Shown here in pieces: positions 4,601 to 53,180 of a stretch of 57,236 bases of DNA. Position 1 is the first letter of the stretch; every line of letters begins with the position of its first letter. The DNA comes from Chiloscyllium plagiosum (Eukaryota): assembly GCF_004010195.1 (NCBI RefSeq), contig NC_057724.1, positions 3,445,087 through 3,502,322 on the forward strand, read 5' to 3'. Both the position numbers and the translations under genes were made by a program. The notes under the pieces are model-generated. The model made no database searches and was not told the origin of the DNA. It saw nothing but the letters and a program-made list of their open reading frames with translations.

Positions 4601-4740
4601 GTGTTAAAGTTTGTGCGAAGATTTGTCGCTCGGGTGCTCGTTGTTGTGGTTCGGTTCGCTCAGCTGGGAATTTGAGTTGCAGACGTTTCGTCCCCTGTCT
4701 AGGTGACATCCTCAGTGCTTGGGAGTCTCCTGTGAAGCGC
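4601..4740 (-). mobile_element. Solo Penelope-like terminal repeat inserted in L1 ORF1
   Basis: Near-identical to 17018-17155 and 41074-41150. It shares its layout with the ends of the GIY-YIG elements at 10152 and 32160. Confidence 0.75.
4679..4718 (-). ncRNA. Minimal type-I hammerhead ribozyme motif (intact core)
   Basis: GCA-CUGAGGA-U-GUCACCU-AGAC-AGGGGAC-GAAA-CGUC-UGC. Confidence 0.7.
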
Positions 4741-5650
4741 TACAACGAAATGTAATATTGCTGGATATCTGACAGAATACTGAATATATCCAAGTCCCTT
4801 AGCCATATTTTTTCCTTGTCAAAGGCCTTACTCTTGCGGATCATGGCTGCAGAAAAGTCTTGGGAAAATATAATTCTTGATCCTTTGTATGTCAGAGCCT
4901 GTGGATCCTTCCCCAGTGCTCTAGAAGTTTCCAGCACCATTTGTTGATCTCTATAGTGCTGGTCCAATCAGGGCCTGCGCACTGTGATCTGGTGGGCCAC
5001 TCAACCCACACCCGGTCCGCCCGACTTCCAGCTTCAAAAACCGCAGGAGCGATTGCTCCGAGAAGCTGACCAGCTGGCATCCTTCTTCCTGTTCCGGCAG
5101 TCCGATCAAATGGATGTTCTTTCGATGGCCTCGATTTTCGAGGTCATTGACCTGCTCTACTAAGGCCCGTACCTGCCGTTCCCGGGGCTGGACCCAACCC
5201 ATCCAGGATTCTGCCGCCTTTTCGGAAGGCGCGGTCCGCTGCTCCACCTCCATGACCCGCTGCCTGAGATGCTGGATCTCCTGGTCATGCTCCTGCAGCA
5301 TGGCCGAGTTTGGTTCCAGCTTGATCCGGGTATCCACCATCGCTGAATTGATCTTCGCTCGGAGTTTCACAAACTCCGAGATCAGCCTCTGCTCCATAGG
5401 AAACCCCCTGGGACATTTGCGGAGGCCGACACTGTGGGCGTGCCCATTGCTGCAGGGGAATGCCCTGCTTGGTGCAATCCTCGCTGTCCTTTTCCCTTAG
5501 TCATTTTTCCTAATCAATTAAACTGACATACAGCAATTCTGGGGATCCAAAACTACCAATTTTTACCAGAATGGGTGAGAAAGGGAGGGTGAATGCATCA
5601 CTTTGTCTGGGTTCTTGTAGAGCGCTCAGTAGGGCAGACCTATTGGATCA

Positions 5651-5662
5651 CCGCCATCTTGG
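5651..5662 (-). promoter_or_regulatory. YY1-type motif at L1 5' end (internal promoter)
   Basis: CCAAGATGGCGG lies within about 20 nt of the inferred L1 start, the same position as the YY1 site of mammalian L1. Confidence 0.6.
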
Positions 5663-5789
5663 TTCTCCCTTCATATCGTTCTGAACTCACCAATATTTAT
5701 TTTCAGGTCCAGACCCTTTGTTATTCAAGTTGTTAGTATCAATGCAGAGGGAGGAGTCAAACTGCGGAATGTTTCAGAGACACATGCAC

Positions 5790-6275
5790 AAAACAACCCT
5801 GTGTGTGAATACTTTAACTCCTCCTCCCATTCTGCCAAGGACATGCAAGCCCTTGGCCTCCTCCACCGCCAAACTCTAGGCATCCAACGCCTGAAGGAAG
5901 AACGTTTCATCTTCCGCCTTGGAATCCTCCAACCACACGGGATCAATGTGGATTTCACCAGGTTCCCCATTTCCCCTCCCCCCACCTTAGCCCAGGACCA
6001 ACCTTCCAAATCGGCACCACTCTCTTGAACTGTCCTACCTGCCCATCTTCCTTCCCACCTATCCATTCCACCCTCCTCTCCAAATTAACACCTTCACCCC
6101 CACTTTCATCTACCTATCGCATTCCCAGCTACCTTCCCTCCAGCTTCACCCCCCTCTTATTTATCTCTCAGCCCCCTTGGGCTAACCCCATATTTCCGAT
6201 GAAGAGCTTATGCTCAAAACATCGACCCTCCTGCTCCTTAGATGCTGCCTGGCCTGCTGTGCTTTTCCAGCTTTT
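5790..6275 (+). mobile_element. Penelope-like element 3' fragment with degenerate hammerhead (6196-6225)
   Basis: C-terminus RLKEERFIFRLGILQPHGINVDF, a pyrimidine-rich UTR, then ccgatgaagagcttatgctcaaaacatc. Confidence 0.7.
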
Positions 6276-6874: not shown

Positions 6875-7046
6875 CTGAAAATGTGGCAGGTCAGGCAGCA
6901 TCCAAGGAACAGGAGAATCAACGTTTCGGGCATAAGCCCTTCTTCAGGAAACTCCTGTTCCTTGGATGCTGCCTGACCTGCTGCGCTTTTCCAGCAACAC
7001 ATTTTCAGCTCTGATCTCCAGCATCTGCAGTCCTCACTTTCTCCTC
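6875..7046. mobile_element. Fold-back mini Penelope-terminus element with 16-bp TSD; hammerhead motif at 6917-6950 (-)
   Basis: Inverted arms; TSD cattattttactttag at 6859-6874 and 7047-7062; CUGAAGA-A-GGGC-UUAU-GCCC-GAAA-CGUU. Confidence 0.75.
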
Positions 7047-8934: not shown

Positions 8935-9168
8935 GAGAAAGTGAGGACTGCAGATGCTGGAGATCAGAGCTGAAAATGTGTTGCTGGAAAAGCGCAGCAG
9001 GTCAGGCAGCATCCAAGGAACAGGAGAATCAACGTTTCGGGCATAAGCCCTTTCAGGCTCAACGTTTCAGGCTCATTCCTGAAGAAGGGCTTATGCCCGA
9101 AACGCTGATTCTCCTGTTCCTTGGATGCTGCCTGACCTGCTGCGCTTTTCCAGCAACACATTTTCAGC
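8935..9168. mobile_element. Fold-back mini Penelope-terminus element with 14-bp TSD
   Basis: Long inverted arms; TSD tcccgttaataaag at 8921-8934 and 9169-9182; two opposed, mutated hammerhead motifs. Confidence 0.8.
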
Positions 9169-9405
9169 TCCCGTTAATAAAGCCCAGGATGTTGTATGCT
9201 TCATTAATCACTTTCTCAACCTGTCCTGTCAATATCAATGATTTCTTTACATCATATCCTTTGGGATAAAAATCAACAAATAACAGAATAAAAACCCAAT
9301 AGTAGAAACAAATAATCTTGTCTTTCAGAAAGAGGGTCCTTGCTGATCTGAATCCAGTGTGTGGAACTTTGCTTTTCATCGCGACAAATAATGTGATGAC
9401 CAAAC

Positions 9406-9539
9406 CTGACACACGTCAGCAGTTTTGTAGAATGTCTTCTTATCAATGGTCTTGAGAGATTCGATGATACACGGCAGATCGACTAACTTGGCAGCCAAGG
9501 GCTGCTTGTCCACTCGCACAATGCCATGCCGGCCATCCG
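9406..9539 (-). CDS. TAF7: TAF7/TAF7L coding exon 4
   Basis: (P)[44 protein letters not shown] (TAFII55 N-terminal domain); 134 nt, AG/GT. Confidence 0.95.
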
Positions 9540-10152
9540 CTATGAGAAAGGAAACAGAAACCAGTTTTATACATCTATACTAATGCATTTACACTCTCAT
9601 CCACTTCTCCACCCCTCAAATCTCACTGAGTCTCATAGTTCCACCAAGCTTGAGTGAAGGTGTGGAAGGCAACAGAAAGTGAATCCTAAAGTGACATTCA
9701 ATATTAACACAGGGTGTTGTTAAAGAAAGAAATTGTTTGCTATAAGCAGCTGTTTAAACAAACACTGAAACAGGACATAAAACATTCTGAAGTAGAATCA
9801 GACTTGACTGGGTACATGAACGGGTTCTACAGACACTGCCAAACCTGATGATTTCCAGCTTCTCTATATCAGAGGACACAAAAGGGAACTGGATAAGGAT
9901 GTAGAAATAAATATAAAAAGAATGTGGGGAAAGGCCCAAGTTATATGTTGGAGTCTTCTTCGCCCAGAGGACTGCCTGGATGAAGTCATCAGTCCATGTG
10001 AACAGTGATAATTTACTGTAAATGACAAACCAGAAAGGTGTCAGTTCTTGCCTGGCGTAAAGAGGCAGAGGGAACGCCTGGTAATATGAGAGGGGTGCAG
10101 TCACCTAGCTTCACTTTTGATTGCCTTAGAAGCTTGGAAAGGAAATTCTGAG

Positions 10153-11443
10153 AAGGTTTGTAGCTCAGGTTGAGGTTTAGGGTGTAGGTTTGCTCGCTGA
10201 GCTGTAGGTTTGATATCCAGATGTTTCATTACCTGGCTAGGTAACATCATCAGTGGCGACCTCCAAGTGAAGCGAAGCTGTTGTCTCCTGCTTTCTATTT
10301 ATATCTTTCTCCTGGATGGGGTTCCTGGGGTTTGTGGTGATGTCATTTCCTGTTCATTTTCTGAGGGGTTGATTTTTGGTATCTAGATCTATGTGTTTGT
10401 TTATGGCGTTGTGGTTGGAGTGCCAGGCCTCTAGGAATTCTCTGGCATGTCTTTGCTTAGCCTGTCCCAGGATAGATGTGTTGTCCCAGCCGAAATGGTG
10501 ATTTTTTTCATCCGTGTGTAGGGCTACGAGGGAGAGAGGGTCGTGTCTTTTTGTGGCTAGCTAGTGTTCGTGTATCCTGGTGGCTAACCTTCTTCCTGTT
10601 TGTCCTACGTAGTGTTTGTGGCAGTCCATGCATGGAATTTTGTAGATGACGTTGGTTTTGTCCATGGGTTGTACTGAATCTTTTAAGTTTGTTACCTTTT
10701 CTTTGAGAGTGTTGGTGGGTTTTTGTGCTATCAGGATTCCGAGAGGTCTTAGTAGTCTGGCTATCATTTCCGAGACTTCGTTGATGTATGGTAAGGTGGT
10801 TAGGGTTTCTGGCTGTGTTTGGTCTGCTTNNNNNNNNNNNNNNNNNNNNNNNNNNNNNNNNNNNNNNNNNNNNNNNNNNNNNNNNNNNNNNNNNNNNNNN
10901 NNNNNNNNNNNNNNNNNNNNNNNNNNNNNNNNNNNNNNNNNNNNNNNNNNNNNNNNNNNNNNNNNNNNNNNNNNNNNNNNNNNNNNNNNNNNNNNNNNNN
11001 NNNNNNNNNNNNNNNNNNNNNNNNNNNNNNNNNNNNNNNNNNNNNNNNNNNNNNNNNNNNNNNNNNNNNNNNNNNNNNNNNNNNNNNNNNNNNNNNNNNN
11101 NNNNNNNNNNNNNNNNNNNNNNGTAGTCTGACTGTCATTTCTGAAACTTCTTTGATGTATAGTAAGGTGGTTAGGGTTTCTGGCTGGGTTTAGTCTGTTT
11201 GTCGTGGTTTGTTCTTGAGGAATCTGCGCACTAGAATTTTTGAGTATCCGTTCTTCTTGAATACGTTGTATAGGTGGTTCTCTTCTTTCAATGAACTTCA
11301 GAAAACAGAGGAACCCCATCCAGGAGAAAGTTATAAATAGAAAGCAGGAGACAACAGCTTCGCTTCACTTGGAGGTCGCCACTGATGATGTAATGAAACG
11401 TCTGGATATCAAATCTACAGTTCAGCGAGCAAACCTACACCCT
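10153..11443 (-). mobile_element. Penelope-like element (GIY-YIG 3' part) with inverted terminal repeat; contains N gap
   Basis: LPYINEVSE, NVIYKIPCMDCHKHYVGQTGRRLATRIHEH. 11307-11443 is the reverse complement of about 10176-10330. TSD aaaggaaattYtgag at 10138-10152 and 11444-11458. Confidence 0.85.
10217..10256 (-). ncRNA. Hammerhead motif (CpG-decayed stem III)
   Basis: CCA-CUGAUGA-U-GUUACCU-AGCC-AGGUAAU-GAAA-CAUC-UGG. Confidence 0.55.
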
Positions 11444-12827
11444 AAAGGAAATTTTGAGTTTTATATCCTTGACTGGGTTTTTAATATGCTCTCTTCTCAA
11501 GATTTGTATAGTGGCTCGGTGTCAATGTTTGTTCATACACCTTAGACATTGAGCTGTGGTTGACACCAATCATGTTGCCATTAATAATGCCTATAAAACC
11601 ACTGGATTGTCCTAAAACCTCATCTGACTCATCAAGGTGCTTTGGGGAAGAAAACCTTCTGTCCTCACTTGTCTGACCTGCATATGGCCTTAACGCACAG
11701 TCAGGGGTCTGACTCTTACCTATCCTCTGAAATGACCTAGCAAACATTCAGTTGTATTAAGCTACTCTGAAAATGAATTGTTATACAGCCTGCAGTTGTT
11801 CAAGAGGGTGGTTCCTCAGGGTAATTAGGGATGGGCAAGGAATGCCATTCTTGCTGGCAGCACCCATATCCCATACATAAAAATACAGTGTGCAAGAAAG
11901 AGGAGTGTCGACACTTCCTTCCTGTTGAAAATGGGAGAGGCATGATTTTTGTAGGAATTTAAAAAACTGGGCAGTCAAATGTGGGTGGTGGGTAAATCTT
12001 TAAAGTCAATAATTGGAGACAAATTAAACTGTTACCTGGAAAAATACAGATTTATAAATGATGTGAGAAGGGATTAGTTATGGGCAAATGGCATTTGACG
12101 ACCATGATTGAGTCCTTTAATAAAGTCACCACAGATTGATGAATGCATTGTCACTCATGTTATTCTTGTGAATTTTCAATAAATGTTTGAGAAAGTGTCA
12201 AATAAACCTGTTATAAAAATTGAAGCACAGGGTTTCAAGGGCATAGTGGCTGCATGAATATTAATTTGTCTACAATTCTGCATTCACAGCCTTTTGCTAG
12301 AGAGAAAGCCAAGGAGAAAAACTCTTCACCCTCGGAGAAAAAAATACTTCATCATCTGTTTCAAATGGGAGCCTCCTTATTTTTAAACTATGAATCCTAG
12401 TCCTAAACTCTTCAACAAGAAAACCACCTTTTTAACATCTACATTCAAGTTCTCTCAGGATCTTGTACGTTTCAATTAAGTCATCTCTGATTCTTCTCAA
12501 TTCCAGAGGATACAGGACAAGCCTTTCCTGATAAGGGAATCAGATATTAGTCAAGTAAACCTCTAAAGTATCTCTAACGTATTAATATCTTCTATAAGTA
12601 TGGTGACTAGAACTGTACACAGTACCCCAGACGTCGGCTCACCAATGCCTGATATAACTGAAGCATAACCTCCCTACTCTTGCATTTAATTTCCCTCACA
12701 ATAAACCATAACATTTCATGAGATTTTGTGATTACTTGTTGTACCTGCACACGAGTCTTCTATAGTTCATGCATCAGAACACCCACATTTCTCTGAATCC
12801 CAGAGCTCTGCAACTTCTCACTTTTTT

Positions 12828-13175
12828 TTTAGATTAGATTACTTACAGTGTGGAAACAGGCCCTTCGGGCCACACTTGGATGAAGGGATGAAAGGTGCAA
12901 TGGCTAAATTTGTCCACGCTGCCCTGCCGAAGCGCAATCCACCCATACCCCTACATTTACCCCTTACCTAACACTACGGGCAATTTAGCATGGCCAATTC
13001 ACCTGACCTGCTCATCTTTGGACTGTGGGAGGAAACCGGAGCACCCGGAGGAAACCCACGCAGACACGGGGAGAACGTGCAAACTCCACACAGTCAGCCG
13101 TCTGAGGCGGGAATTGAACCCGGGTCTCTGGCGCTGTGAGGCAGCAGTGCTAACCACTGTGCTACCGTGCCGCCC
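12828..13175 (-). mobile_element. HE1-type tRNA-derived SINE, full length
   Basis: 5' gggcggcacggtagcacagtggttagcactgctgcctcacagcgccagagacccgggttcaattcc (A/B boxes), with a (TCTAA)n tail. Confidence 0.85.
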
Positions 13176-14684
13176 ACAATTATTGGAATTCTCTGATGAA
13201 ATAATTTGTGCTGTAGACAAAGGGGAATGAGTGGATATCCTCACTATGAGGATAGTACGCTTCATTTTCATCCTTTCTGCCAAAATGGACAGCTTCACAT
13301 TTTCCCACATTGTACTCCATTTGCCAAAGCTTTGCCGATGCACTTCGCCTATTTATATCCCTTTGTAAGCTCATTATTGAAATAACTCCACAGAGACGAG
13401 TGTGTCCTCACCAAGTCATCGTTTACCTACAATTGCATAGCACTTGACACAGCGAACTGAGTGAACAGAATCTCTGATACTCCTGTCTATATTTGTCAGC
13501 CAGGGCTCCCTGAATTGGACCAGACTTACAGCCCGAATCAGGGAGCCCATATTTGATAAGATCCATCTAGCCGACCTCTTCAAAATCAGTATACTTGTCC
13601 TCTTCACATCTCACTTGCCCACCAATATTTGTGTCATCAATAAATTTCGCCATTGCACCTTTCATCCCTTCATCCAAATCATTTATATAAATTGTAAGTA
13701 GTTGAGGTTTCAACACTGACCCCTGTGGCACACCACTCATGACATCCTGCCAGCCTGAAAAAGAACCACTTACCCTATTCTCTGAAACTTGTCAACTAGT
13801 CAACCTTTCGTGCATGTCAATGTGTTATCCTCGATATCATGAGCTTTTATTTTCCATAATAATCTTTGATGTAGTCCTTTATCCAAATACCTTCTGAAAA
13901 TCTAAATACAATAAATCCACTCATTCCCCTTTGTCTACAGCACAAATTATTTCATCAGAGAATTCCAATAATTTAGTTACACATGATTTCCCTTTGACAA
14001 AAACACGTTGGCTTTCGCTGATTATCCTGAATTTATCCAAATGCCCTGTTTTAATGCCTTTAATACCTTCTAACATTTTCCCTTCGACAGATGTCAAGCT
14101 AATTCCAATTTGAATGAAGCACTGATGACACAGGAACAGGAGAAGGCTTCTCGAGCCTGTTCCGCCATTCAGTGAGATCATGGACCAACCTGTGGCTTAA
14201 CTTCATAAAACTGCCTTTGGCCCATGTCCCTTAACAAAAAAAACTATCCATTTCACACTTAAAGTTAATAACTGATGCAGCGTCAATTCCCATTTGACAA
14301 AGAGGGTTCCAAACATCCATTACTTTCTGTGTTTTGAAGTGCTTTCTAACATCTTTCCTGAATGGTCTGGCCCTAATTCTTTGACTGTGCTCCCCTAATT
14401 TTGGAAATGCTTGAATATCCAATCAAGATTGGCTGTGCAACTCTTTTTGGTTGAACAGCTCATTGACAATCGTTGCCCAGGATTCCCTTAAGGTGGAAGG
14501 GAAGTACCAGGAAATACACAGTAGGGACTGGAACCAGGGCGGAGAACTAGTAACACTAGAAGGTTCTAAGTTGGAAGAAAAACCCTTTGTCAGAATTGAC
14601 CGAACCAGCCTGAAATAGAGCGCAGCCTGAAGGAAGGAGATTAATAGTGACCAATTGTGAACGCATTCAGCCAAAAACACTTAC

Positions 14685-14763
14685 GATGTAACTCGATGGT
14701 CAGTCTGTCCCGAAGATTAACATTTCCAGATTGTACAGCTCTCCGCACAGTGGCTGCATGTTC
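14685..14763 (-). CDS. TAF7: TAF7/TAF7L coding exon 3
   Basis: EHAATVRRAVQSGNVNLRDRLTIELH; 79 nt, CAG/GTAAG. Confidence 0.94.
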
Positions 14764-16322
14764 CTGCAGAGAAAAAGCACAGACTGAAAACTCTGCAGTC
14801 TGCATGATTCACAATCTCATTCACACAGGCACATGGAACAACTAGAGAGACATGGCTAGGGGTGAGACATGACAAGGGATGATTCCCAGGGATGTGTACT
14901 GGGGCCTCAAATGTTTATAAATGACTTGAATTATTAAAGAAAGAGATCCACCTACCTAAGTGTACTACGTTGGTAGGAACAGCAAATTATGACAAGTTAC
15001 AAAGATGGGTTGAGTGACTTGTCATAATTGTGAAGTTTATTAAGATGGAGTTTATTGTGGGAAAGTTTGAGTTTATCCACGTTAATGCAGAAAATATAGA
15101 TAATATTTTCTATAGAATGGGACGCACAGAACTATGGAGGAGCAAAGATTTAGGGGTCTGATAATAGATATCATCAAGAGTTGATAAATAGAGACAAAAA
15201 CTAATTGAAAAGCCTAATGAAATATTGGCCTGTATCTCAAAAGGCTGGAAGCCAAAGGGCACAATGTGACGGTTCCCTTTAATGGAGCTTTGACTAGAAT
15301 CCCATTTAGAGTAGTACATGAACAGTTCTGGATACTTCGTAGCAGAGTGATGTAACAGAGATCACTTTTTTGGACACACTGCATAGACTAGACTTGTACT
15401 CGTTTGAATATAAAAAATTAAGCAATGATCTAATTAAGATGATGAAAGGAGTTGACAGGGTACAGAGAGGTAAATATCTTATCTTGAGCAAGTATCTAGA
15501 ACAAGAGACTGATCAATATTACAGCTAGGCTATTCATGTGTAATGTCAAAGTGCATTTTGTCACAGGGAGTGTGTTGGAAATGATCGACTATTAGTCAGC
15601 GTTCTTATTTCCATAGGTGCAGGTGATGTTTGTAATCTTCCTTGTGAAATGTATAACCTGCCACTTATCGACGTTCAAGTTAATTTGCTATTTAAATACC
15701 GAGACTGCAAGCTTCTAGTGTTTCTGTGTTCTCCTGTGTTCTTCCTCATTCACAAAATCCAAACTGAATTACTACAATCAGTGATGAACTACCAGAATTG
15801 ATCTTTGCAAAACATGACATCTGCCTTCTTCCGTTCTGAAAAACTTCTCTTGAATTGGCTTCCTACTTTAGTCAGTTTATTATCCATTTAGCTATTTATC
15901 CGCTAACTTTCCACACATTAACCTTTGTCATGGGCCTACCATGTGGTACCTTATTGAAATCTGTTGAAAAACGTCTCATTTTCTTTACACAATGGGATAA
16001 AATTTGGTCCATATTGTTTGAAAGAATGGTGGAAATTCACTCACAAGTAATTGAAACAGTGTATGAGATAAATAGTTCAAAAGGTAAAATTTGCAGCACT
16101 GTGGGAAAAGAACAAGAGAGTGTACTTAATTGGATAGTTCTTTCAAAGAGACAACACAGGAACAATAAGCCAAATGGACTCATTATTGTGGTCAAATTCT
16201 ACTGTTATAGTGCATTCATTTTCACTTCTTGTTCAAGCCATTAGAAAAATCTAAATTGTCACTCTACGTCTTGGCACATGAACTCATACCTCACTTTATT
16301 GAAGAGAATGTGTAACACTTAC

Positions 16323-16405
16323 TGATGGCAGCCTCAAAATGTACTGACTCTCTAATTCATGAGGTGCATCCTCTTTGCTCTTCGATCCTTGCTTCTGTCC
16401 TTTGG
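16323..16405 (-). CDS. TAF7: TAF7/TAF7L coding exon 2
   Basis: KGQKQGSKSKEDAPHELESQYILRLPS; 83 nt, TACAG/GTAAGT. Confidence 0.93.
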
Positions 16406-16512: not shown

Positions 16513-16878
16513 CCAGCTATCTCTTAGACTGCCCTCCACTTAGTTGCTGGATAAAGTATACCTGCTTGGTCAATTGCCCTAGATCAAAAATGATTAACCA
16601 CTCATCCTCTAACCCCCCACAACCAGCTTGCAATCCTGCCATGATACCCTAAAGTCCAACCTATCATGAGGCTTTGAATCTCTTGCAATCTCCAGACACT
16701 GATCTTGGCCAAGACACTCAATACACCACCAGCCTTTTTTGACCCCTCTGTCTCCTTTCCACCCCTCAGCTGCAGCAAAGTGTCAAAGACCTATCGGACT
16801 GACTGCTAGCCTGCCTCCCAATCTGGCTGGCTGGAGACTGGGAAAGGAGGCAGAAAGAAATGTCAGCCAGATATTGTT

Positions 16879-17156
16879 GTAGTTCTGTTCGCCGAGCTGG
16901 GAATTTGCGTTGCAGACATTTCGTCCCTGTCTAGGTGACATCCTCAGTGTTTGGGAGCCTCCTGTGGTGTTTCCTCCGGCATTTATACCACTATAAATGC
17001 CGGAGGAAACATCACAGAAGCGCTTCACAGGAGGCTCCCAAGCACTGAGGATGTCACCTAGACAGGGGACGAAACGTCTGCAACACAAATTCCCAGCTCG
17101 GCGAACAGAACCACAACAACGAGCACCCGAGCTACAAATCTTCTCACAAACTTTAA
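16879..17156. mobile_element. Two inverted Penelope terminal repeats with 16-bp TSD
   Basis: TSD tcagccagatattgtt at 16863-16878 and 17157-17172; the arms are reverse complements. Confidence 0.8.
17042..17081 (+). ncRNA. Minimal type-I hammerhead ribozyme motif (intact core)
   Basis: GCA-CUGAGGA-U-GUCACCU-AGAC-AGGGGAC-GAAA-CGUC-UGC. Confidence 0.72.
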
Positions 17157-24681: not shown

Positions 24682-24765
24682 ACTGCTTGCTCAGACCAGA
24701 TCTCCCTTTTTTATGCTGAAAGCAGTAAATGAATGCCCTTTCCTTCTGTTCTGCAGCTCTCCACC

Positions 24766-26412: not shown

Positions 26413-26434
26413 GAGCAAGGCCACACTTCTTAAC

Positions 26435-37019: not shown

Positions 37020-37133
<114 letters not shown>

Positions 37134-38045: not shown

Positions 38046-38344
38046 TGATTCACATTGCTGTGGGAGATGGCTTTGAGAGAATAAGGGTTTTTAACAAAAT
38101 CTCTGAGAACTGCTATGCAGAGGCAGCCTGCAAAAGCCTGGGAAACTGGCAGGAGCTAGAAGCAAAAACTCTGTATGGTTCACCATATAGGAATGCGGGG
38201 AGAAACTCACGCATGGATGAATTTATGAAGATTTGGAATTAAGTCTGAAACATTTGACTGGCTTGTGGGAGAGTGGAAATCAACAGGAAATCCTGTACCA
38301 TGAAAGATCTACAGTTGAATGTGTCTAGGTGCAAATGCAAGGAT

Positions 38345-38945
38345 GCTGAGAGTCACTTTGACTGTGCGCGTCTGTGTGTATCTGTGTCCGTGTGCATGTG
38401 AGAGTGTGTGTGTGTAGTACAGGTGATCACCATTGCACTACACACACACACACACACACAGATATTCCTACACACAGACACCCACACACACCCTTATAGA
38501 CACACAGACTCCCACACATACACCCCCTCACAGACTTAAGACACTCTGCACTCACTANNNNNNNNNNNNNNNNNNNNNNNNNNNNNNNNNNNNNNNNNNN
38601 NNNNNNNNNNNNNNNNNNNNNNNNNNNNNNNNNNNNNNNNNNNNNNNNNNNNNNNNNNNNNNNNNNNNNNNNNNNNNNNNNNNNNNNNNNNNNNNNNNNN
38701 NNNNNNNNNNNNNNNNNNNNNNNNNNNNNNNNNNNNNNNNNNNNNNNCACTGTATTCTAACAGATGAAAGGCTTAACAGACAATCAATTCTTCAATATAT
38801 AATTTCAGTTACATCACACTGCAAATTTTTGCTATAAATTCTGTGTTACGATCGATCCCTCCACAATCATCTGATGAAGGAGCGTCGCTCCGAAAGCTAG
38901 TGTGCTTCCAATTAAACCTGGTGTTGTGTGATTTTTAACCTTGTG
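38345..38945 (+). mobile_element. Penelope-like 3' terminus with (CA)n tracts; spans N gap
   Basis: A CA-rich UTR, then ctgatgaaggagcgtcgctccgaaagctagtgtgcttccaattaaacctg. Confidence 0.6.
38868..38902 (+). ncRNA. Minimal type-I hammerhead ribozyme motif (intact core, AGCU palindrome)
   Basis: CAU-CUGAUGA-A-GGAGC-GUC-GCUCC-GAAA-GCUA-GUG. Confidence 0.68.
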
Positions 38946-39032
38946 AATCATGGTTTCCTTAGTATGGGTCACTATTGCTGGTGCTCTGTGCTCCTGGTTC
39001 ATTCTCTAACTTCTGTCTGTCCTGTTTTGCAG

Positions 39033-39123
39033 TGGGTTTAGGAGAAGCTGCCAATTTTGCTGCCTATGTCTTTGCTCCAGCAACTCTGGTCACTCCGCTG
39101 GGAGCCCTTAGTGTCCTTGTGAG
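39033..39123 (+). CDS. NIPA2-like coding exon 3
   Basis: [31 protein letters not shown]; 91 nt, CAG/GTGAGC. Confidence 0.95.
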
Positions 39124-39517
39124 GTGAGCAAACATCTGACATCACTTAGTTCCAGCTCCAATTCATCTCTATCTTGCCAGTCTACAGTTTCACAGACCCT
39201 GACCATACACCAGTCCTTCAAATATATGGTCATTTGTGGTGCTCAGACCAATGAATGCAGTTGTTCTGTCATGGAAGTCAAGGGTAACACCACTCATACC
39301 TCAGGTCCTTATCCATGCAGTTTACATGAGCTGCACTGGGAAACTGTCTCCTCTCCCCATGACAAACGCTCACTCACTGTCTCCCTCCAGTTCAGTGACA
39401 ATGGGGTATCTCAATATCCAAGGATTGAGTGACATCAGGACTGAGCTGGAATCCAGGAACATGAGTAATCCAGTTCTACAGCATGAAAAGAGGCTCTTCA
39501 GCCCAGAGTATGTTTTT

Positions 39518-39780
39518 AGGCAACTGACTGTGTGGAGTTTGCACATTCTCCCCATGTCTGCGTGGGTTTCCTCCGGGTGCTCCGGTTTCCTCCTACAGTC
39601 CAAAAATGTGCAGGTTAGGTGAATTGGCCATGCTAAATTGCCCGTAGTGTAAGGTGAAGGTGTAAATGTAGGGGAATGGGTCTGGGTGGGTTGCTCTTCG
39701 AAAGGGCGGTGTGGACTTGTTGGGCCGAAGGGCCTGTTTCCACACTGTAAATAACCTAAACTAATCTAATCTAATCTAAA
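39518..39780 (+). mobile_element. 5'-truncated HE1 SINE
   Basis: aggcaactgactgtgtggagtttgcacattctcccc...ctaatctaatctaaa. Confidence 0.85.
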
Positions 39781-40297
39781 ACACAGTGGGGTAGGTACAG
39801 CACGTGATAGAATAAGCTCTGTACCTTTTAAGAACCAAAAGTAAAGCTTTCTCCTCTTTTAAACTGAAACTATAGCTGCCTCTACCCTTCTAAATAGAAC
39901 ATCACAAACTACACTGTCGCCATCAAATACTCCTAGGATAAGTATAGCACAGAGTTAGACACAGAGTAAAGCTGCCTATTCTTTTAAACTGCATGTAGAA
40001 CAGGGACAGTAGGGAAGTTAAGGCCGGTGAGCCTTACATCAATGGTAGGGAAATTATTGGAGAAGGTTCTTAGAGATAGGATTTACTTGCGTTTAGAAAA
40101 ATGGCTTAGATTAAGTAATCAGAAGGCCGCATGGTTTTGTCCAGAGAAGATCATGTCACACAAACTTGATTTTTTTTGAGGAAGTGACAAAGATGTTTGA
40201 CAGGGCAGTAAATGTTTGCCAGTGTGGACTTTAGCAAAGCCTTTGACAAGATCCCTCATAAACAGACTGATTCAAAATGTGAAGCCACATGCAATCT

Positions 40298-40486
40298 GGA
40301 GAAAGTGAGGACTGCAGATGCTGGAGATCAGAGCTGAAAATGTGTTGCTGGAAAAGCGCAGCAGGTCAGGCAGCATCCAAGAAGCAGGTTTCCTGAAGAT
40401 TCAAGGGCTCATGCCTGACCTGCTGCGCTTTTCCAGCAACACATTTTCAGTTCTGATCTCCAGCATCTGCAGTCCTCACTTTCTCC
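40298..40486. mobile_element. Fold-back mini Penelope-terminus element
   Basis: Inverted arms of about 75 bp (ggagaaagtgaggactgcagatgctggagatcag...), same family as 8935-9168. Confidence 0.8.
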
Positions 40487-41073
40487 CAGATGCCAGGGTC
40501 AGGGATGTCTCGGATCAACTCTACAGGGTTCTTAAGGGGAAGGGAGAGCAGCTAGAAGTCATGGTACACATTGGTACCAATGACATAGCTACAAAAAGCA
40601 ATGAGGACATGAAATTGAATATGGGGAGTTAAATTGGAAGCTAAAAGGCAGACCGATCAGAGGATTACTACCGGTGCCACAGGCTAGTGAGGCGAGGAAC
40701 AGAGAGCGAATGCAGCTGAACACATGGCTGTAGAGCTGTGTAGGAGGGAGGGCTTCACATATGTTGATCATTGGGGTGCCTTTTGGGGAAGGTGGGAGCT
40801 GTACAAGGAGGACGATTTGCACCTGAACTGGAGGGGCACCGATATCCTGGGCAGGAGGTCTCCCACAGTTCTTTGGGAGGGGTTTAAACTAGTTTGGCAG
40901 GGGGATGGGAACTGGAGCTATGGGTCAGAGGATGGGGTAGCTGGTGAACAGGCAAACACATTGTGCAGAGAGTCTGTGGGGAAGGATAGACAGTTGATAA
41001 GGCAAAGTTGCCGTCAGTGTGATGGGTTGAAGTGTGTCTATTTTAACGCAAGAAGTGTCAGGAATAAGGGTGA

Positions 41074-41458
41074 TGGGAATTTGTGTTGCAGACGTTTCGT
41101 CCCCTGTCTAGGTGACATCCTCAGTGCTTGGGAGCCTCCTGTGAAGCGCTTCTGTGATCTTTCCTCCGGCATTTGTAGTGGTTTGAATCTGCCACTTCCG
41201 GTTGTCAGTTCCAGCTGTCAGCTGCAGTGGTCGTTATATTGGGTCCAGGTCGATGTGCTTATTGACTGAATCTGTCCTGGACCTGGATCCAATATACCAA
41301 TATGCAACGGACAGCTGGAACTGTGCTTCACAGGAGCTCCCAAGCACTGAGGATGTCACCTAGACAGGGGACAAAACATCTGCAACACAAATTCCCAGCT
41401 CGGCGAACAGAACCACAACAACGAGCACCCGAGCTACAAATCTTCTCACGAACTTTGA
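41074..41458. mobile_element. Two inverted Penelope terminal repeats; intact hammerhead at 41088-41127 (-), decayed at 41344-41383 (+)
   Basis: Same family as 4601-4740 and 16879-17156. Confidence 0.8.
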
Positions 41459-43519
41459 ATTTAATAAGGCTCCCCATGGCAGGTTCATTCAGACAGTAAG
41501 GAAGCATAGGATACAGGGAAATGGGACTATCTGGATACAGAACTGGCTGGCTCAAAGAAGACAGAGAGTATAAGTGGATGGAAAGTATTCACCCTGGAGC
41601 TTGGTGACCAGTGATGTTCCACACAGATCTGTTCTGGGACCTCTGTTCTTTGTGATTTTTATAAATGACTTTGATGAGGAAGTGGAAGGGTGGATTAGTA
41701 AGTTTGCTGATGACACAAAGGTTGGTAGTTGGAGGGTGGTGGGTAGTTGGAGAGTTGTGGGTAGTGTGGAGGGTTGTTTTCGGTTGCAGTGGGAAATTGA
41801 CAGGATGCAGAACTGGGGTGAAAAGTGGCAGATGGGTTCAACCTGGAAAAGTGTGAAGTGATTCATTTTGGAATGTCGAATTTGAATGCAGATTACAGGA
41901 TTCTTGGCAGAGTGGAGGAGCAGTGGGATCTTGGGGTCCACATCCAAAGATCCCTCAAAGTTGCCACCCACATTGATAAGGTTGTTCAGAAGGCTATGGT
42001 GTTTTGGCTTTCATTAGCAGGGGGATTGAGTTTTAGAGCCATGAGGTTATGCTGCAACTCTATAAAGCCCTAGTTAGACCACACTTCGAATATTGTGTTT
42101 GGTTCTGGTCACGTCATTACAGGAAAGATATAGAAGCTTTAGAGAGGGTGCAGAGGAGATTTACCAGGATGCTGTCTGGACTAGAGAGAATGCCTTATGA
42201 AGGAAGGTTGAGGAAGCTGGGCTTTTCTCATTGGAGCAAAGAAGGATGAGAGGTGACTTGATCGCGCTATACAAGATGACGAGAGGCATATATAGAGTGG
42301 ATAGCCAAAGACATTTTCCCAGGGTGGAAGTGGCTATCACAAGGCACAATTTTAAGGTAATTGGAGAACGTTTAAGGGAGATGTCCACAGAGAGTAGTGG
42401 GTGCCAGCAGTAGTAACAGAATCAGATACTTCAGGGACATTTGGGTGATTTTTTGGATGGGCATATGGATGATAGTAAAATGCAGGGTATGTACGTTCAT
42501 TTGATCTTAAAGTAGGATAAAAGGTTGGCACAAAATCAAGGGCTGAAGGACTTATACTGTGCTGTGCTGTTCTATGTTCTAAAACTGGATAAGGTGGTCA
42601 AGATGGTCAATATGGCATGCCTTCATCTGTCATGGCAGAGAGTATGAAAATTGGCAAGTCATGTTAGAGGTGTATAGACCTTTAGTTATGCCACATTTGG
42701 AATATTGTATACAGTTTGGGTCACCACACTACCAAAAGGATATGGAGATTTTGGAGAATGTTCAGAAATGGTTTATTAGGATATTGCCTGCTTTGGAGGG
42801 TATTAGCTATGAGAGATTGGACAAACTTGTGTTTTTTTCCACTCGAACATTGAAGGATGAGGAGTGACTTGATAGGAGTTTATAAAATTACGAGAGACAT
42901 GAATAGAACGGATAGTTGGTAGAAATAATTGGCTGCACGGTGGCTCAGTGGTTAGCACTGCTGCGACCCAGGTTCGATTCCAGCCTCAGGCGACTGTCTG
43001 TGTGGAGTTTGCACATTCTCCTCGTGTCTGCATGGGTTTCCTCCCACAGCCCAGAGATGTGCAGTTTAGGTGGATTGGCTATAGTGTCCATGGATGTGTA
43101 GGCTAGGTGGGTTAGCCATGGGGAATGCAGGGTTACAGAGTAGCAGAGTGGGTCTAGCTGCACTTCAGAGAGTTGGTGTGGACTCGATGAGCCAAACGGC
43201 CTTCTTCCACACTATAGGGATTCTATGAAATATCGTTTACTAGGAGACATGGGTTTAAGGTACAAGAGGAAAGGTTTAAAGGAGATGTAAGAAGCTAATT
43301 GTTTTTTCACAGGGTGGTGAGTGCCTGGAATGCCCTGCCAGAGGAGGTGGTGTAGGCAGTTACTTTAGTCATGTTTAAGAGGTGTCTTTACAAATGTATA
43401 AATAGGCAGGGAATAGAGGGAAGTGGACCGCATAGAGGCAGAAGGTTTTTAGTTGAGAAAGACGTCATACAGTTTTGCAGTCTGTTCTTGTATTGTCCTT
43501 CATTCTAAAGCTCTCAAAA

Positions 43520-44235
43520 TTGTCTGGATCAAATACTCCCATGACAGAGATAGCATGGGGTTAGAGGCAGACCAAAGCTCCCTCTATTCTTTTAAAATGA
43601 AAGTAAAGCTTCCCCCTCTCTTTAAACAAAGTAACCTTTCAGAAGTGAAAGTAAAGATACAGAGTAAAGCTTCCTCTAATATTTTAAACAAAGTAAATGT
43701 CTGTCAAAACTATCTATATCAAACATTCACAAGATCGGAACAGTATGGGGTTTGATGCAGAGGAAAGCTGTTTCTACACTTTTAAACCAAAAGTAAAGCT
43801 TCCACAATCCTTTTAAACTGAAAGTAAAATTCCCTTGACACCATCCCCATGAAACACTCCTGGGACAGGTACAGCACAGGGTTAAATACAAAGCAAAGCT
43901 CATCTATTCTTTTAACCTGAAATTAAACTAGCTCTGCACTCCCAGGAGAGATACAGGGCAGGGTTAGATACGAATTAAGGATTAGAGTCCCCCTATTCTT
44001 TTAATCTGAAAGTAAATGGAAATTAAAGTTCTCTCGACACCATTCCCATCAAACACTCCTGGGACATGGACAGCATGGAATTAGATACAGAGTCGAGCTT
44101 TAAACTGAAAGTATAGCTCTGATGACATTGTCCCCATCGAGCACACACAAGATAGGCACAGTCCGGGGTTAGCTACAGAGTAAAGCTTCCTCTAAACAGT
44201 CCTCTAGAAACCCTCCCAGGGCAAATATAACATGG
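43520..44235 (+). repeat. Degenerate tandem array of cagcacggggttagatacagagtaaagctccctcta-type unit (also about 39785-40000 and 47800-47970)
   Basis: About 7 recognisable copies interleaved with ttttaaactgaaagtaaagct. Confidence 0.75.
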
Positions 44236-44936
44236 AGACTGGTCCTATCCCTCAGTTGTTTATGTCGTTTAAAGAGCAATTACTATCCCTGCTGTACACA
44301 CAAGTGCGATCCGTGGAGTAGCTACATTTGAGGAAACTGTCGTTTGGCTTTAGATCTCAGGCTTAGTGGTTGTGTCTGTCTCATTATTTTGCATCTACAA
44401 TTTAAGATAATTGCAAGTAGCTATTTGAATTTATTCCAGACCTTTCGGACTTTTAATGTAACTACAGGATTAGGTCAACTCCTATTTGCTTGTCCTTTTC
44501 ATATTTTAAATTATCAATGTATCTGGAATGAAAGAATGAGCTCTCAGCTGCATTTCCTTCCCTAACACCATTGGGTGTTTACCTGCAGCACATGAACTTC
44601 AGTGGTTCAAGAAGGCAGCTCACCACCACCACCTCACGGGCTACTAGGGATAGGCAGTAAATAGCGGCCATCCAGCAACACTGACATCCCGCACAGGCTG
44701 TCGTGGATGGGGTCAAGTCAAAGTTCAAAACTGTTGTTTGTCGGACCATGTGAAGACTGAAAGAGATATAAAGTTTCAGGGAAAGTATATCTCAGTGATT
44801 TCTCCATAATGTGCAAGGATGAGATTAGTTGGAGATGGCTCTTTTGATCTTTGCAAGCTACTTTCAGTGTTGATGGTTTTCTGCAGGGCCTTTGCATGTG
44901 CTAATCAAAAGTCCTTGCTTTCTCCCCTCTCTACAG

Positions 44937-45097
44937 TGCTGTTTTATCCTCTTATTTTCTAAATGAGAGCCTTAACCATCATGGGAAGATGGGCTGCATC
45001 TTGAGTATTTTGGGATCGACAGTGATGGTAATCCATGCCCCCCAAGAGGAGGAGGTTGGCACCTTGACTGAAATGGTGGAAAAGCTCAAAGATCCAG
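44937..45097 (+). CDS. NIPA2-like coding exon 4
   Basis: [53 protein letters not shown]; 161 nt, CAG/GTAGGC. Confidence 0.95.
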
Positions 45098-46211
45098 GTA
45101 GGCCAAATATTGCAAAGTAAAACCTCATAGACTGACAACTGTTTAAAGGAAATCTGCAACTACTACAGAGCTCAGTTCCTCACTGTATAGTTGTTCTAAT
45201 TCTACAAAATCATGAATTTATTACAGGAGAAGCCATTTGGCTATATGGCAGTATATTCCTCCCCAGGAGAATGACTTGTATATGAGCAGTGAACGGCAAC
45301 AGGCTATTCGGTTGTTTGAGCCTGTTCTACCATTCAATAAAATTATATCTGATCTTAATATAACCTCATCCGTATTGTTTCCAACCCCACTGATTAACAG
45401 TCTAAGAATCTACCTACCTATGCCTTAAAATATTCAAGGGCTCTGTTTCCACTACTTTTTCTGAGAGTTCCAAAGACCCTAAGAGAAAACAAATTCACTT
45501 CATCTGTTTTAAATAGGTGGCCCCTTAATTTTAATGACCCCGAGTTCTAGATCCTCCAATAAGAGGAAACATCCTTTTCACATTAACCCAAGCATAATTT
45601 CTCAGAATCTTATGTTTGAATAAAAGTTACCTCTTACCTCAGCAGATAAATAAGGTGACCAATCTGTGTACAATACTATTATTCCTACAGAGGCAGTAGG
45701 GCATGGTAATGTCACTGGTCCTGTGATCCAGAACCTCAGACTAATGTTCTGGCACTGCAGAAAATTTGAATTCAACAAAATAGCTGGAAAATAAAAGCGG
45801 GACCAGTGGTGACCATATAAATATTATAAATTGTCCTAGAAAGCCATCTATTTATTATCATTTTAGAGAAAGAACTATGTATCCATACCTGGACTGACCT
45901 ATGTGTTGGTTGAGATTGACAGCAATATGTTTGGTTGACACTCCTGCCCTCTGGGTAATTAGGGGTGGGCAATAAATACTGGTCTAGCTAGTGATGCCTA
46001 TATCCATATTAATCCCTTTTGATAGTTACCATTCAACCTGCTTCACATCCCTGATGGTCTAATTCAAAGCAAATATATTTCTCATACTTCCATTTGCCTG
46101 TCTGTTCTATTTCTTAAACCTATTCAGTGTGCTGATGTAGTTCAATCACACATGAGAGCCATCACTTAAACATTTAATACCATTTAAATTCAACTCGTGT
46201 CTGGCTTGCAG

Positions 46212-46831
46212 GTTTTATTGTGTTTGCAATATGTGTCGTCACCAGCTGCCTGACCCTGATCACTGCAGTAGCCCCCCGCTATGGGCAGAAGAATGTGCTG
46301 GTCTACATCCTGATCTGTTCCATCATCGGCTCCCTCTCCGTCTCTTGTGTCAAGGGCCTGGGGATCGCCATCAAGGAACTGTTTATGGGTCGCCCTGTGC
46401 TGGTGCAGCCAGTGACCTGGATCCTGCTAGGCTGCCTGATACTCTGTGTGAGCATACAGATTAATTACTTAAACAAAGCCCTGGACATTTTCAACACCTC
46501 CATTGTTACACCCATCTACTATGTCCTGTTCACCACTGCTGTCATGACCTGTTCAGCCATCTTGTTCAAGGAGTGGTATCACATGACCATAGACAACATT
46601 GTGGGCACGATAAGTGGGTTTGTCATCATTGTTCTTGGGATCTTCTTGCTCCATGCCTTCAAGAACATCAGCTTCACCCTTGGTACCCTACCCCCATTCA
46701 TCAGGAAGAGTGAACCTGGCACCATGTGGACCAACATGACACAGCATCAGCAGTATCCAGGTCTGCCAGAGCAGGAAACTGAAGTCCTCATCTGCCCAAG
46801 TGAAGTTGGGATTGTGCATGGTTTCACCTGA
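46212..46831 (+). CDS. NIPA2-like coding exon 5 (terminal); spliced CDS 1068 nt = 355 aa
   Basis: GFIVFAICV...[34 protein letters not shown]...[27 protein letters not shown]...TGA. Confidence 0.96.
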
Positions 46832-49844: not shown

Positions 49845-50172
49845 CTCTGTGGTTAGTACAGCTGCATCACAGTACCTGGGATCGATTCTAGCCTCAGGCA
49901 ACTGTGTATGGAGTTTGCACATTCTCCCCGTATCTTTGTGGGTTTCCTCCGGGTGCTCTGGTTTCCTCCCGCAATCCAAAGGTGTGCAGGTTAGGTGAAT
50001 TGGCCATGCTAAATTGCCCATAGTGTTCAGGGATGTGTAGGTTATGTGTTTAGTCAGGGGTAAATGTAGAGTAATGGGGAATGGGTTTGGGTGAGATACT
50101 GTTTGGAGGGTCGACGTGGACTTGTTGGACCAAAGGCCTGTTTCCACATTGTAGGGATTCTCTGATATCTAT
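49845..50172 (+). mobile_element. HE1-type SINE
   Basis: gtggttagtacagctgcatcacag...ggcctgtttccacattgtagggattct. Confidence 0.8.
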
Positions 50173-52029
50173 GAAGTGGCATACAGCATCTCATCCTTTG
50201 AGCCTGCTTCACAATTCAGTAAGAGCAGAACTGACCTTCCACCTCAACCTCACCTTCCTGCAGTATCACAGAATCTTTTAAAACCAAAAGCATAAGAAAA
50301 CATTGCTGAAGAAACTGAGGTGGTTACTGGACAGAAAACGGTTAATGTTTTGAGTCCTTTTGACTCGTCTTCAGAATTTTTTTTCCCTTTGTTTTATTTC
50401 AAATCTTCAGTATTCACAATTCTATTTTACTTTGCACAAGAAAGCACTAACTTTTTCAGATATATGATTTGTAAACAAATAAGAACTGACTACAAAAGAA
50501 CATGGATAGGTAAAAGAATGGGCAGACTTGTGACAAATGTAATTTAATGCAGAGTGTGAAACAAGACATATTATGAAGGAAGAGATAAGGGAGGGAAACA
50601 CGTCAGCCTAATGGCACAATTAAAGCGTGTGTGCAGAACAGAGGGACATAAGACTGTATGTGCAGGATATATGTATCAGTGAAGATGGTGGGACTTGAGT
50701 GTGAGATTAATATTGCATATTGGATCTCATCAAAAATAGAAGTGTTGAGTGCAACATCAAGGAATTTATGTAGAACCTTAATTACACCCTGGTTAAGTTG
50801 CACTGAGAGTATTGTGTTCATTATGGTCACAACACTCAAGGATGAGAGCATCCTCAAATACCTGCAGAGGAGAATAGCCAGAATGGCTCAACAGACAGGT
50901 GCAGGAGTGGGGTGGGGTGGTGCATTTTAGTTCCAGGGTCAGTTTGGAGAAGCTAAGTAAATTTCTTTGGAGCAGGGAAGTTTGAAGGAAGATTCATGCA
51001 GGGTTTTTTAAACTTTACTTAGATCAACTGTAACACTTCAACTTTTAGATTCTTTATCTCTTATCATAATAGTGGATTCTTTATTTCCAGTGCTACTTTC
51101 CAATGTCAATTTGAACATCACCCACTGTGAATGACGTCCCTCTGCCAGAAAGACACCCCCAGATCTACCCTGTGAATACTGACCTAAACCCGGGGGACCT
51201 CCCTGTGAATACTGACCCACTCCTGGAAAGCCTCTGCAAATGAAGAGCCTCTCGGATCCCTGATAATTCCAGAACAATCCCAAGGTCTCTTTGTAAAGCA
51301 GAGCTAGTCCTGGGAACACCCGGAAATACTGAATCCACTCCTCTGGGAGTACATTTAACTCCTAGAAAATCCCCTTGAAAATTAACACATTCTCATGGGA
51401 TCTCTTGTAACGACTAACACACTTAGGGACCCTCCCTTTTAAACATCAATATTACACACAGCCAAAACGTTCCTCCATCGATTGACACCTTGACTTGCTC
51501 ACTGCTGGACGGTTCCCTGACCTGACCCTCTTGTGCTGTTTTTGAGAGAAACTCACTTCAATTCTGGAATTTGATCTCTTGTTAAACATTAACCTTTATG
51601 GTTAGCAAAACATAAAAAAAAACACACCACTCATTACCCCCACTGAACACAAATGGAGGTGAATTCTTCCAGAGAAGACTGTAATGCCTGTAGCTGGCAT
51701 TTATTGTCTCACACTAGTGATGCACTGCTGTTCGCTTGCACTCTGGAACAGGCTGTTCAGATTCCTGCAAGAACGTGGTGAAGAGCTGACTGGGGTCCAC
51801 GGTAAAGTTGGCCCAACATGCTCTTGCGAGGCCACATCCACACACATCAATTCAATTCTTTAGGTTGGTTGAGGATATGGGAGTATTTTCAGCAACCAGG
51901 CTCAGTGGGCCATGAGGCCATGTTTCTCAACTTATGTATACTACTCCCTCCATCAGCACCACCTCCCCCAACCCAATCCTATCTCCCCTGGAATCTAAGC
52001 CCAAGTTTTAGCAGAGCCAAAATAGCAGA

Positions 52030-52620
52030 GAAACTGCTAGTTACAGAATTGTTATAGTGCAGGAGGCAGTTATTTGTTCCATCATGCCTGCATAGCTGTT
52101 CAAAAAAGCAGCATTACCTATTGCCAATCTGCTTTTTCCCCATACCCTTGCACATTATTTTTAATCCACATAATTATCCAATGCCCTCTTGAATGCCTCA
52201 ATTGAAACTGCCTCCACCACACTTCCAGGCAGTGCATTCCATGCCCCAACTACAGGCTGTGTGAAAAAAGTTGTTTCTCGCATCACATTTGCTTCTTCTG
52301 CAAATCATTTTATATCTATGCCCTGCAGTTCTTGTTCCTTTTACAAGCAAGAACAGATTTATCCTATCTACTCTATCCAGGCCACTCATTACTTTGAAGA
52401 GCTCCATCAAATCGCCTCGAAGCTGCCTTTCTCCAAAAAAAACAGTCCCAACATCTTCAATTTACCGTCATAACTGATGTTTCTTATTTTTGGAAACATT
52501 CTTGTAAATTATTTCTGCGCTCCCTCCAATACATTCATTCTTTCCTTAATGTGGCACCAAAACTGTGCCCGATACTCAAGGTAAGGTCTAGCAAGTGTCT
52601 TATGGAATCACTCTGGTACC
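52030..52620 (-). mobile_element. CR1-type LINE 3' fragment
   Basis: ELFKVMSGLDRVDRINLF; the FFTQ..V..WNALP region is frameshifted. Confidence 0.7.
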
Positions 52621-53029
52621 AAGTGAGGTTGGTGATTGAATTCAGTGTGACAATTTGCAACGTGCAGAATGATCATTGGAAAAGGAGGGAAAAAAAATAA
52701 ACAAAAGAAATTGAAATAAAGGAAGTGGACTCATGGAGTATCTCAATGTAGGTGAGATGACTCCATTGAGTTCATCTTTTCTTAAGCTTTTCTGAGTGTA
52801 AAACCATGAGTGTATGGAGAGGGTTCAGTAGAGATTTATAAGGATGCTGCTGGTATAGAATGTTCCAGTTAGAAGGAAAAGCTGAATAGGCTGGGACTTT
52901 TTTTTTACTGGAGCATTGTTGAGAGATGACCTTATAGAAGTTTATAAAATAATGAGGACTCATTGCTGTCTCCAGTCCCATTCCAAGAGCCCATGACAAG
53001 TATTGATCACTGCAGGCTTTACTGCTGTC

Positions 53030-53180
53030 ACCAACCCCGTTCCAGCTTGCTCCTCTCTCACCCTGCAGTCCCAGTTCAGTTCTGAAGAAGTCATACCAGA
53101 CTGGAAACGTTAACTCATACTCTCTCCACAGATGCTACCAAAATTGCTGAGTTCCTCCAACATTCTCTGTGTTTGTTTCA
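53030..53180 (+). mobile_element. Penelope-like terminus with variant hammerhead motif at 53078-53115
   Basis: AGUU-CUGAAGA-AGUC-AUACCA-GACU-G-GAAA-CGUU-AACU. Confidence 0.55.

Follow-up and report, generated by a model that had tools for sequence, protein, structure and literature searches.

The window analysed here is a 57,236-nucleotide (nt) stretch of Chiloscyllium plagiosum DNA (assembly GCF_004010195.1, contig NC_057724.1, positions 3,445,087 to 3,502,322 of the forward strand; coordinates below count from its first base). It holds two host genes and, dispersed in and around them, minimal hammerhead ribozymes (min-HHRs) located in Penelope-like element (PLE) ends. A sequence-only reading of the window had cited nine such motifs and proposed that they place potential self-cleaving RNAs at high density in housekeeping-gene introns. 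The explanation favoured here, and considered probable, is that these are the min-HHRs of Poseidon- and Neptune-type pseudo-long terminal repeats (pLTRs), passively copied, likely inactive in host pre-mRNA, and inserted by dual priming on uncut RNA. The direct observations are the motif and its covariation, the link to a reverse transcriptase (RT)/GIY-YIG endonuclease frame, copy number, decay pattern, and insertion anatomy.

The host genes were placed by Pfam, motif matches, and splice sites. A TAF7-type gene occupies 9379..16405 on the minus strand, with one exon within 9379-9579 (PF04658, E 2e-21) and another at about 16323-16405 (motif match and splice sites). A NIPA magnesium-transporter gene (PF05653) lies at 24757..46831 on the plus strand, with exons near 24.8, 37.0, 39.0, 44.9, and 46.2-46.8 kb and its first exon probably at a CpG island near 22.2 kb. 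This island (21900-22500, including an assembly gap) would probably drive both genes divergently. The hammerhead motifs fall mostly in, or probably in, the introns of these two genes, and those at 50374 and 53082 lie past the last NIPA coding exon.

Element copies have one of two alternative end points, separated by about 35 nt, which define tailed and tailless arms, and many consist of two arms in head-to-head orientation flanked by a target-site duplication (TSD). A single tailed arm of family A (Poseidon-type; 4604..4741, -) carries an intact min-HHR at 4682-4715, sense to the TAF7-type gene. It seems to be inserted into a series of fragmented minus-strand frames (226-5500), presumably LINE ORF1 and endonuclease remnants, for which Pfam matches were not significant. 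Family E (Neptune-type) formed a head-to-head insertion with a 16-bp TSD at 6875..7046, where the tailless arm holds an intact min-HHR (6920-6947, -) and the tailed arm begins a few bases past the cut site, without a core, and another with a 14-bp TSD at 8935..9168 (locus L051), where the uncited motif at 9079-9106 (+) lacks U16.1. A family B (Poseidon-type) head-to-head insertion at 10153..11443 (L098; 15-bp TSD with one mismatch) includes an assembly gap; its tailed arm retains a GIY-YIG remnant and a motif at 10253 (-) that has lost its palindrome, and its tailless arm a motif at 11382 (+; cited as 11379) with stem II deleted. The family A head-to-head insertion at 16874..17156 (L001, with TSD) combines a palindrome-less motif at 16947 (-) with an intact one at 17045-17078 (+) and has a predicted hairpin of about -212 kcal/mol. 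Further along lie a tailless arm of family G (Poseidon-type; 31150..32235, +) with RT and endonuclease remnants and a motif at 32166-32199, a family D arm (37720..37950, -, outer limits approximate) with a motif at 37786-37816, both without the palindrome, and a tailless family C arm (38748..38945, +) whose intact min-HHR at 38871-38899 is sense to NIPA, roughly 130 nt upstream of an exon. At 41074..41459, a family A head-to-head insertion that includes the end of the GIY-YIG frame carries an intact motif (41091-41124, -) and an uncited one at 41347 (+) with G12 changed to A. The same G12 change affects an uncited, decayed D-like motif at 50344..50374 (-), while a D/F-like motif at 53082..53111 (+; cited as 53078) keeps its core and palindrome but has lost the 10.1-11.1 closing pair of stem II.

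All nine cited sites, together with every stem I and stem II pairing quoted for them, were recovered, with those at 4679, 10217, 37783, and 41088 being minus-strand motifs, and the predicted cuts are correctly placed after 17078 (GUC) and after 38899 (CUA). The count of "more than a dozen" motifs stands when decayed copies are included (14, or about 18 with the weakest BLAST matches) and fails for intact ones, since core, stem II, and palindrome are all kept in only five window copies. A strict motif scan, with the extra base after position 9 freely chosen, found 7 matches against a mean of 0.05 (maximum 1) in 100 dinucleotide shuffles. A tighter pattern, consisting of an intact core with a strong-strong dinucleotide before UH, found 5 (4715 -, 6947 -, 17045 +, 38871 +, and 41124 -) against 0.00 in shuffled sequence. 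Stem III had been described as exclusively ACGU or AGCU; this does not hold at three of the nine cited sites, where CpG decay has left ACAU (10217 and 32163) or AUGU (37783). Similarly, the CAU/GUG pairing put forward as covariation at 38868 is present but represents a minor variant in a family where CAC/GUG prevails. An Rfam search of the window at E values up to 5 returned 19 matches, with no hammerhead family among them. Only three intact copies are in host sense (4715 -, 6947 -, and 38871 +); none of these has an intact partner of the same family and strand within the window, nor does the window contain tandem hammerhead arrays. Among loci outside it, only an occasional partial tandem was seen (L063).

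Comparison between families identifies the ribozyme class. In 1.06 Mb of fetched DNA, a descriptor that required the core and stem II, assumed an extra base after position 9, and left stem I free retrieved 197 distinct copies in 25 clusters. Watson-Crick pairing holds in 44 of 50 cases for the first two stem I pairs (17.4 when shuffled) and in 56 of 75 for three pairs (11-18 when the strands are slid); because the clusters are related, these figures, like the covariation score below, overstate independence and are not probabilities, and stem II pairing was itself a descriptor requirement. For 13 hand-picked representatives, aligned after removal of three family C rows misaligned by MAFFT, the covariation score was 1.03 compared with 0.35 (0 of 500 shuffles). 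Different stem I pairs are used by at least three lineages. Stem I, which the descriptor did not contain, thus covaries as the sequence-only reading had anticipated, and its proposal that at least five subfamilies conserve the fold is borne out: at least six families, belonging to two PLE types, retain it with compensatory changes. In hammerhead numbering, the 15.2-16.2 dinucleotide of the 197 copies is CG in 76, GC in 33, the CpG-decayed CA or TG in 46 and 31, respectively, and something else in 11. The unpaired base after position 9 and the G10.1-C11.1 pair are present, with G-U in family B. The core, compensatory helices I and II, a palindromic 15.2-16.2 without stem III, a pLTR location, and linkage to an RT/GIY-YIG frame together confirm the proposed assignment to Penelope-type minimal type-I hammerheads.

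The carrier elements are recognizable from their coding ends. At loci of families A, B, G, and E, the hammerhead is preceded by a GIY-YIG motif located 350-395 nt upstream. No Cys-rich linker stands before this motif in A, B, and G, as in the Poseidon type, and E has one (L074 and L155), as in the Neptune type. In families C and D, only E-like endonuclease ends were seen, which may be Neptune-like. A Pfam scan of eight element fragments gave neither an RT nor a GIY-YIG match, and homologues carry PF00078. Among named proteins, the family A frame comes closest to an RT protein of Chiloscyllium punctatum (86% identical), in which hammerhead and tail are read in frame at the N-terminus and the annotated start lies 18 codons earlier; the best non-shark relatives (41-49%) include flatworm entries and unnamed ENA proteins. 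Families A, B, and G use the unpaired U that follows position 9 as the middle letter of an in-frame AUG (17051 and 32172, +; 10247, -), from which the frame stays open through the tail, where a PELQ-like peptide is encoded in all three. The hammerhead of these families therefore lies at the start of the reading frame, such that a cut would likely destroy the translation start of the mRNA.

Genome-wide, the tight pattern has 205,010 matches in 3.56 Gb (190 in the reversed control), or one per 17 kb. The window, with 5 such motifs against 3.3 expected from this rate, is near the genome average, so the high density proposed for housekeeping introns is ordinary for this genome. A single 38-base family A core, matched exactly, was found 3,693 times. 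In family B, at least 20 copies (L081-L101) are identical over 111 nt and are thus young; this identity extends to a decayed palindrome because the query carried that palindrome.

The insertions follow a one-tail rule. In six families, all 93 TSD-flanked head-to-head pairs consist of one tailed and one tailless arm, a count from which pairs with a TSD score below 8 were excluded (about ten, including L117, which reads short/short); without the loci drawn from a two-armed query the count is 76 of 76. For an unbiased sample, a perfect core was the sole criterion in choosing 60 family A sites from contig C1: every one of the 13 close pairs within the first 100 matches, and the first 47 single matches. 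An inverted partner accompanies 36 of these sites, and 24 are single arms, 18 of them tailed. Thirty-three of the 36 pairs are tailed/tailless, 30 with a TSD (one re-read by eye), bringing the TSD-flanked total to 123 of 123. Among 24 resolved pairs, the upstream reach is longer in the tailless arm in 11, longer in the tailed arm in 8, and about equal in 5, and the junctions show short overlaps in 10 and filler DNA in 14. In L103 (1604-1731), the junction holds a 40-nt filler of repeated nearby sequence, presumably a signature of polymerase-theta end joining. Arms of two different subfamilies are joined in L151 and L299. Of 18 family C pairs, 14 carry a 15-nt deletion in just one arm, 7 times in each arm type, in a count where one arm was selected for the deletion and later deletion is possible. 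Family C arm extents were left unused because the references held inverted arms.

The anatomy also favours an uncut template. Of 25 copies bearing the open reading frame (ORF), 22 are informative; 15 of them extend across the cut site, the other 7 begin 14-73 nt past it, and 0 of 22 start at it. Among paired arms, only L061 begins within 1 nt of it. Most ORF-bearing family A copies (L233-L257) stop near the upstream hammerhead, at positions from roughly -140 to +110 relative to it, which hints at an RNA start or an RT barrier there. In family E (L051-L080), by comparison, 5' ends cluster at approximately -4 to +2 of the core, at the edge of stem I, unlike the unbiased family A arms.

Decay was followed in 150 arms not picked by a hammerhead query, of which 108 keep the core and 85 both core and palindrome. 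G12, usually part of a CpG, differs in 17 of 130 cases. After removal of polymorphic columns and base matching, 21 core changes remain against 27.3 expected (P=0.13). The conservation lies between families and thus reflects selection on active elements, and the simplest reading is that selection acts on source elements while their copies drift.

Folding predictions, made for 16 of 18 sites in 600-nt contexts, bury most cores of head-to-head insertions in long hairpins. The predicted probability of the hammerhead stems is 0.00 at 9079, 16947, 17045, 41124, and 41347, all in inverted pairs, and stem I is not formed in the monomer predictions for 4715 and 38871. RNA data came from 2% of one single-cell run (X20), from a species not tied to that of the window; a second run (X21) gave 0 reads. 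In 363 reads compared with the natural copy L253, neither a depth drop at the cut site nor a listed pile-up of starts or ends was found, which is a weak test. In one 10-read loose end (L253:1411-1440) that spans the hammerhead core, 9 of 12 A's are read as G, including two within GAAA, and a comparison by eye with the natural copy L255 showed no other difference. A search of the assembly for a partly edited pattern gave 0 matches, and no A-to-G hypermutated genomic arm occurs among 862 alignments; the sequence of these reads fits ADAR hyper-editing of a PLE hairpin. Over the pLTR (L253:1350-1510), reads in element sense outnumber antisense ones by about 13:1; most reads continue into unrelated flanks and may stem from pLTR-driven transcription of dispersed copies. 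Neutral-like decay, average density, hairpin-locked cores, and A-to-G reads leave intronic self-cleavage unsupported, and the absence of intact partners in the window adds to the case against functional self-cleaving RNAs in housekeeping introns.

The favoured mechanism, which we infer from these observations for every step between the role of the ribozyme and ADAR editing, would run as follows. The ribozyme would serve the source element, probably only with the element protein bound, as in the anole element discussed below, and integration would proceed from uncut RNA. The protein would nick each DNA strand, with a stagger of about 12 bp (14-16 in family E), and one cDNA would be primed per nick, with the distal start site giving the tailed arm and a site about 35 nt upstream the tailless one. 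Host end-joining would then connect the two cDNA ends, and read-through of the inverted insertion in host transcripts would likely produce a long, ADAR-edited hairpin that hides the core. In its most specific form, for which the chances are judged about even as a whole, PLE integration is obligate asymmetric twin priming: one protein dimer would prime both nicks on a single uncleaved RNA read twice from two start sites 35 nt apart, one tail would result per clean two-armed insertion, and the genome would have gained, as a by-product, on the order of 100,000 inserts able to form hairpins, in which the antisense arm and ADAR editing keep the hammerhead silent. Reading one RNA twice would explain at once why a pair has a single tail, why its arms share variants, and why their lengths are correlated.

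Several observations weigh against this account. Before correction, non-CpG core sites differ by 1.7% compared with 3.6% at other sites (P=3e-5), and significance was lost only after column removal together with base matching, so weak selection on copies may operate. The intact copy at 6947 (-), which is in host sense, is predicted to fold with P 0.97-1.0 and is the only intact copy so predicted. The sign of editing is a single 10-read consensus from one run of a species not tied to the window's. Among the 36 unbiased pairs, two are tailed/tailed and one short/intermediate, all without a TSD, and the window has its own exception to the one-tail rule in a family E palindrome at 40298..40487, where both arms are tailed, the core is deleted, and no TSD was seen. 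The tailed/tailed pairs L299 and L300 likewise lack a TSD, and L299 joins two subfamilies. The lengths of the two arms correlate (rho 0.60), with 12 of 24 pairs within 20 nt of each other against 3.2 shuffled, and the arms usually share subfamily variants (main marker discordant in 3 of 28), as hairpin models would also predict. In vitro, the anole element showed no strand preference for either start site in the available text of PMC11167929.

The correlated lengths and junction overlaps of 2-13 nt are what would be expected of the main rival, in which antisense RNA or a single cDNA primes itself and folds back into a hairpin that the endonuclease trims at one end (PMC3846280; PMC8557442). Variant sharing above the shuffled level in families A (33 vs 14), C (38 vs 10), and E (25 vs 6) points the same way, that in family B (5 vs 2) being inside the shuffle range. 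A fold-back copy cannot exceed its tailed template and a tailless cDNA cannot give a tail, however, and two primed cDNAs fit all counts; the 11:8:5 distribution of upstream reach, with the tail tied to neither the longer nor the shorter arm, is one that single-cDNA copying cannot give. Filler DNA in 14 of 24 junctions, the mixed subfamilies of L151 and L299, the one-armed family C deletion (subject to the selection noted above), and the copying of sense RNA from both nicks in vitro, as far as the available text describes it, further disfavour fold-back, which is regarded as unlikely.

Much less probable is that the intronic copies are active or co-opted and form cis or trans dimers that cut host pre-mRNA and thereby tune TAF7 or NIPA expression. 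The five copies that keep core, stem II, and palindrome, three of them in host sense, the predicted fold at 6947 (-), raw core divergence below that of the flanks, and core copies numerous enough to make trans pairing conceivable would favour such a role; against it stand neutral-like decay after base matching, a density equal to the genome average, the lack of any intact partner of matching family and strand in the window, and, as a weak test, the 363 reads with neither pile-up nor depth drop at the cut site. Available text on published min-HHRs describes monomers as inactive and dimers as weak, with 8 of 9 Xenopus dimers showing no cleavage. Least probable of all, and largely refuted, is that the short palindromes constitute a self-propagating non-autonomous family, similar to miniature inverted-repeat transposable elements (MITEs) or retrozymes and mobile as a unit. 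Many family A copies are indeed near 280 bp, several sharing one common junction, but this sample is biased by its query, and unbiased arms range from tens of bases to more than 2 kb with differing junctions; the window has no tandem arrays, and single-arm copies with a TSD exist. The preferred reading remains that of pLTR hammerheads copied passively through two primed cDNAs.

Other features of the window include a decayed family E-like arm with a broken core (6192..6267, +), a decayed E-like palindrome (26321..26411), and a decayed family G-type arm (26471..27237, -) with a hammerhead remnant near 26543. A degenerate repeat of roughly 88-nt units spans 43543-44190, with further occurrences at 39887 and 47801.

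As a ribozyme finding, the shark motifs are ordinary, since their class, covariation, and opposite-strand pairs were described in 2014. What is added is mechanistic: a countable one-tail rule that links in vitro start sites to two DNA nicks. The many young shark insertions make the rule directly testable and bear on how PLEs acquire their inverted ends and tail. At a density of one intact core per 17 kb, such motifs would be present in the majority of long shark genes, which makes sharks a natural test of whether min-HHRs cut without protein; these inserts may also rank among the major sources of edited double-stranded RNA. No description of these shark families or of a two-cDNA model was found in the open literature, and Repbase, Dfam, or subscription papers may catalogue shark PLE families.

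Among the closest published counterparts are the metazoan PLE min-HHRs which, in the available text of PMC4209133 (Cervera and De la Pena 2014), share the core, the lack of a true helix III, the palindromic 15.2-16.2, the extra base after position 9, and G10.1-C11.1, fall into many families with compensatory changes, and occur mostly as single dispersed copies, with dual opposite-strand motifs 100-700 bp apart. Counts there reach about 4,000 in coelacanth and 9,000 in Xenopus compared with 205,010 here, although the descriptors differ, and sharks are unnamed in the searched text and supplements. Animal non-LTR retrozymes, reported from one cartilaginous fish, also contain type-I hammerheads related to those of PLE pLTRs (PMC7229834; bioRxiv 10.64898/2026.07.22.740005); as far as these sources were available, they form tandem arrays with a hammerhead per unit, whereas the shark copies are dispersed, single or inverted. 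MITEs were likewise considered and rejected, as the inserts have variable junctions and asymmetric ends in place of a fixed interior and symmetric terminal repeats. The conserved intronic hammerheads of amniotes (RECK and others) are similarly type-I and intronic but, according to the available part of PMC6155905, few and highly conserved; the shark copies are young, minimal, and decaying, and show neither low copy number nor purifying selection on the locus. Endonuclease-bearing PLE insertions are known to comprise an inverted 5'-truncated copy, a 30-40-bp tail, and a TSD, and the shark inserts have the same composition; the available text of PMC3846280 and PMC8557442 attributes the inversion to antisense self-priming and the tail to endonuclease resolution, whereas the counts made here favour two primed cDNAs. 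A further close parallel is the Poseidon element PAc of Anolis carolinensis (Frangieh et al. 2024); the family A protein is 36% identical to an Anolis relative (P0035) that may differ from PAc. In the accessible text of PMC11167929, PAc carries a hammerhead at the start of its ORF, which begins at stem II, and in vitro both strands are extended on an uncleaved RNA template from two start sites bracketing the tail, in line with the ORF-start hammerhead and the arm ends of the shark elements. The same text leaves these two start sites unconnected to the arms of inverted insertions, a pairing that is counted here in the genome.

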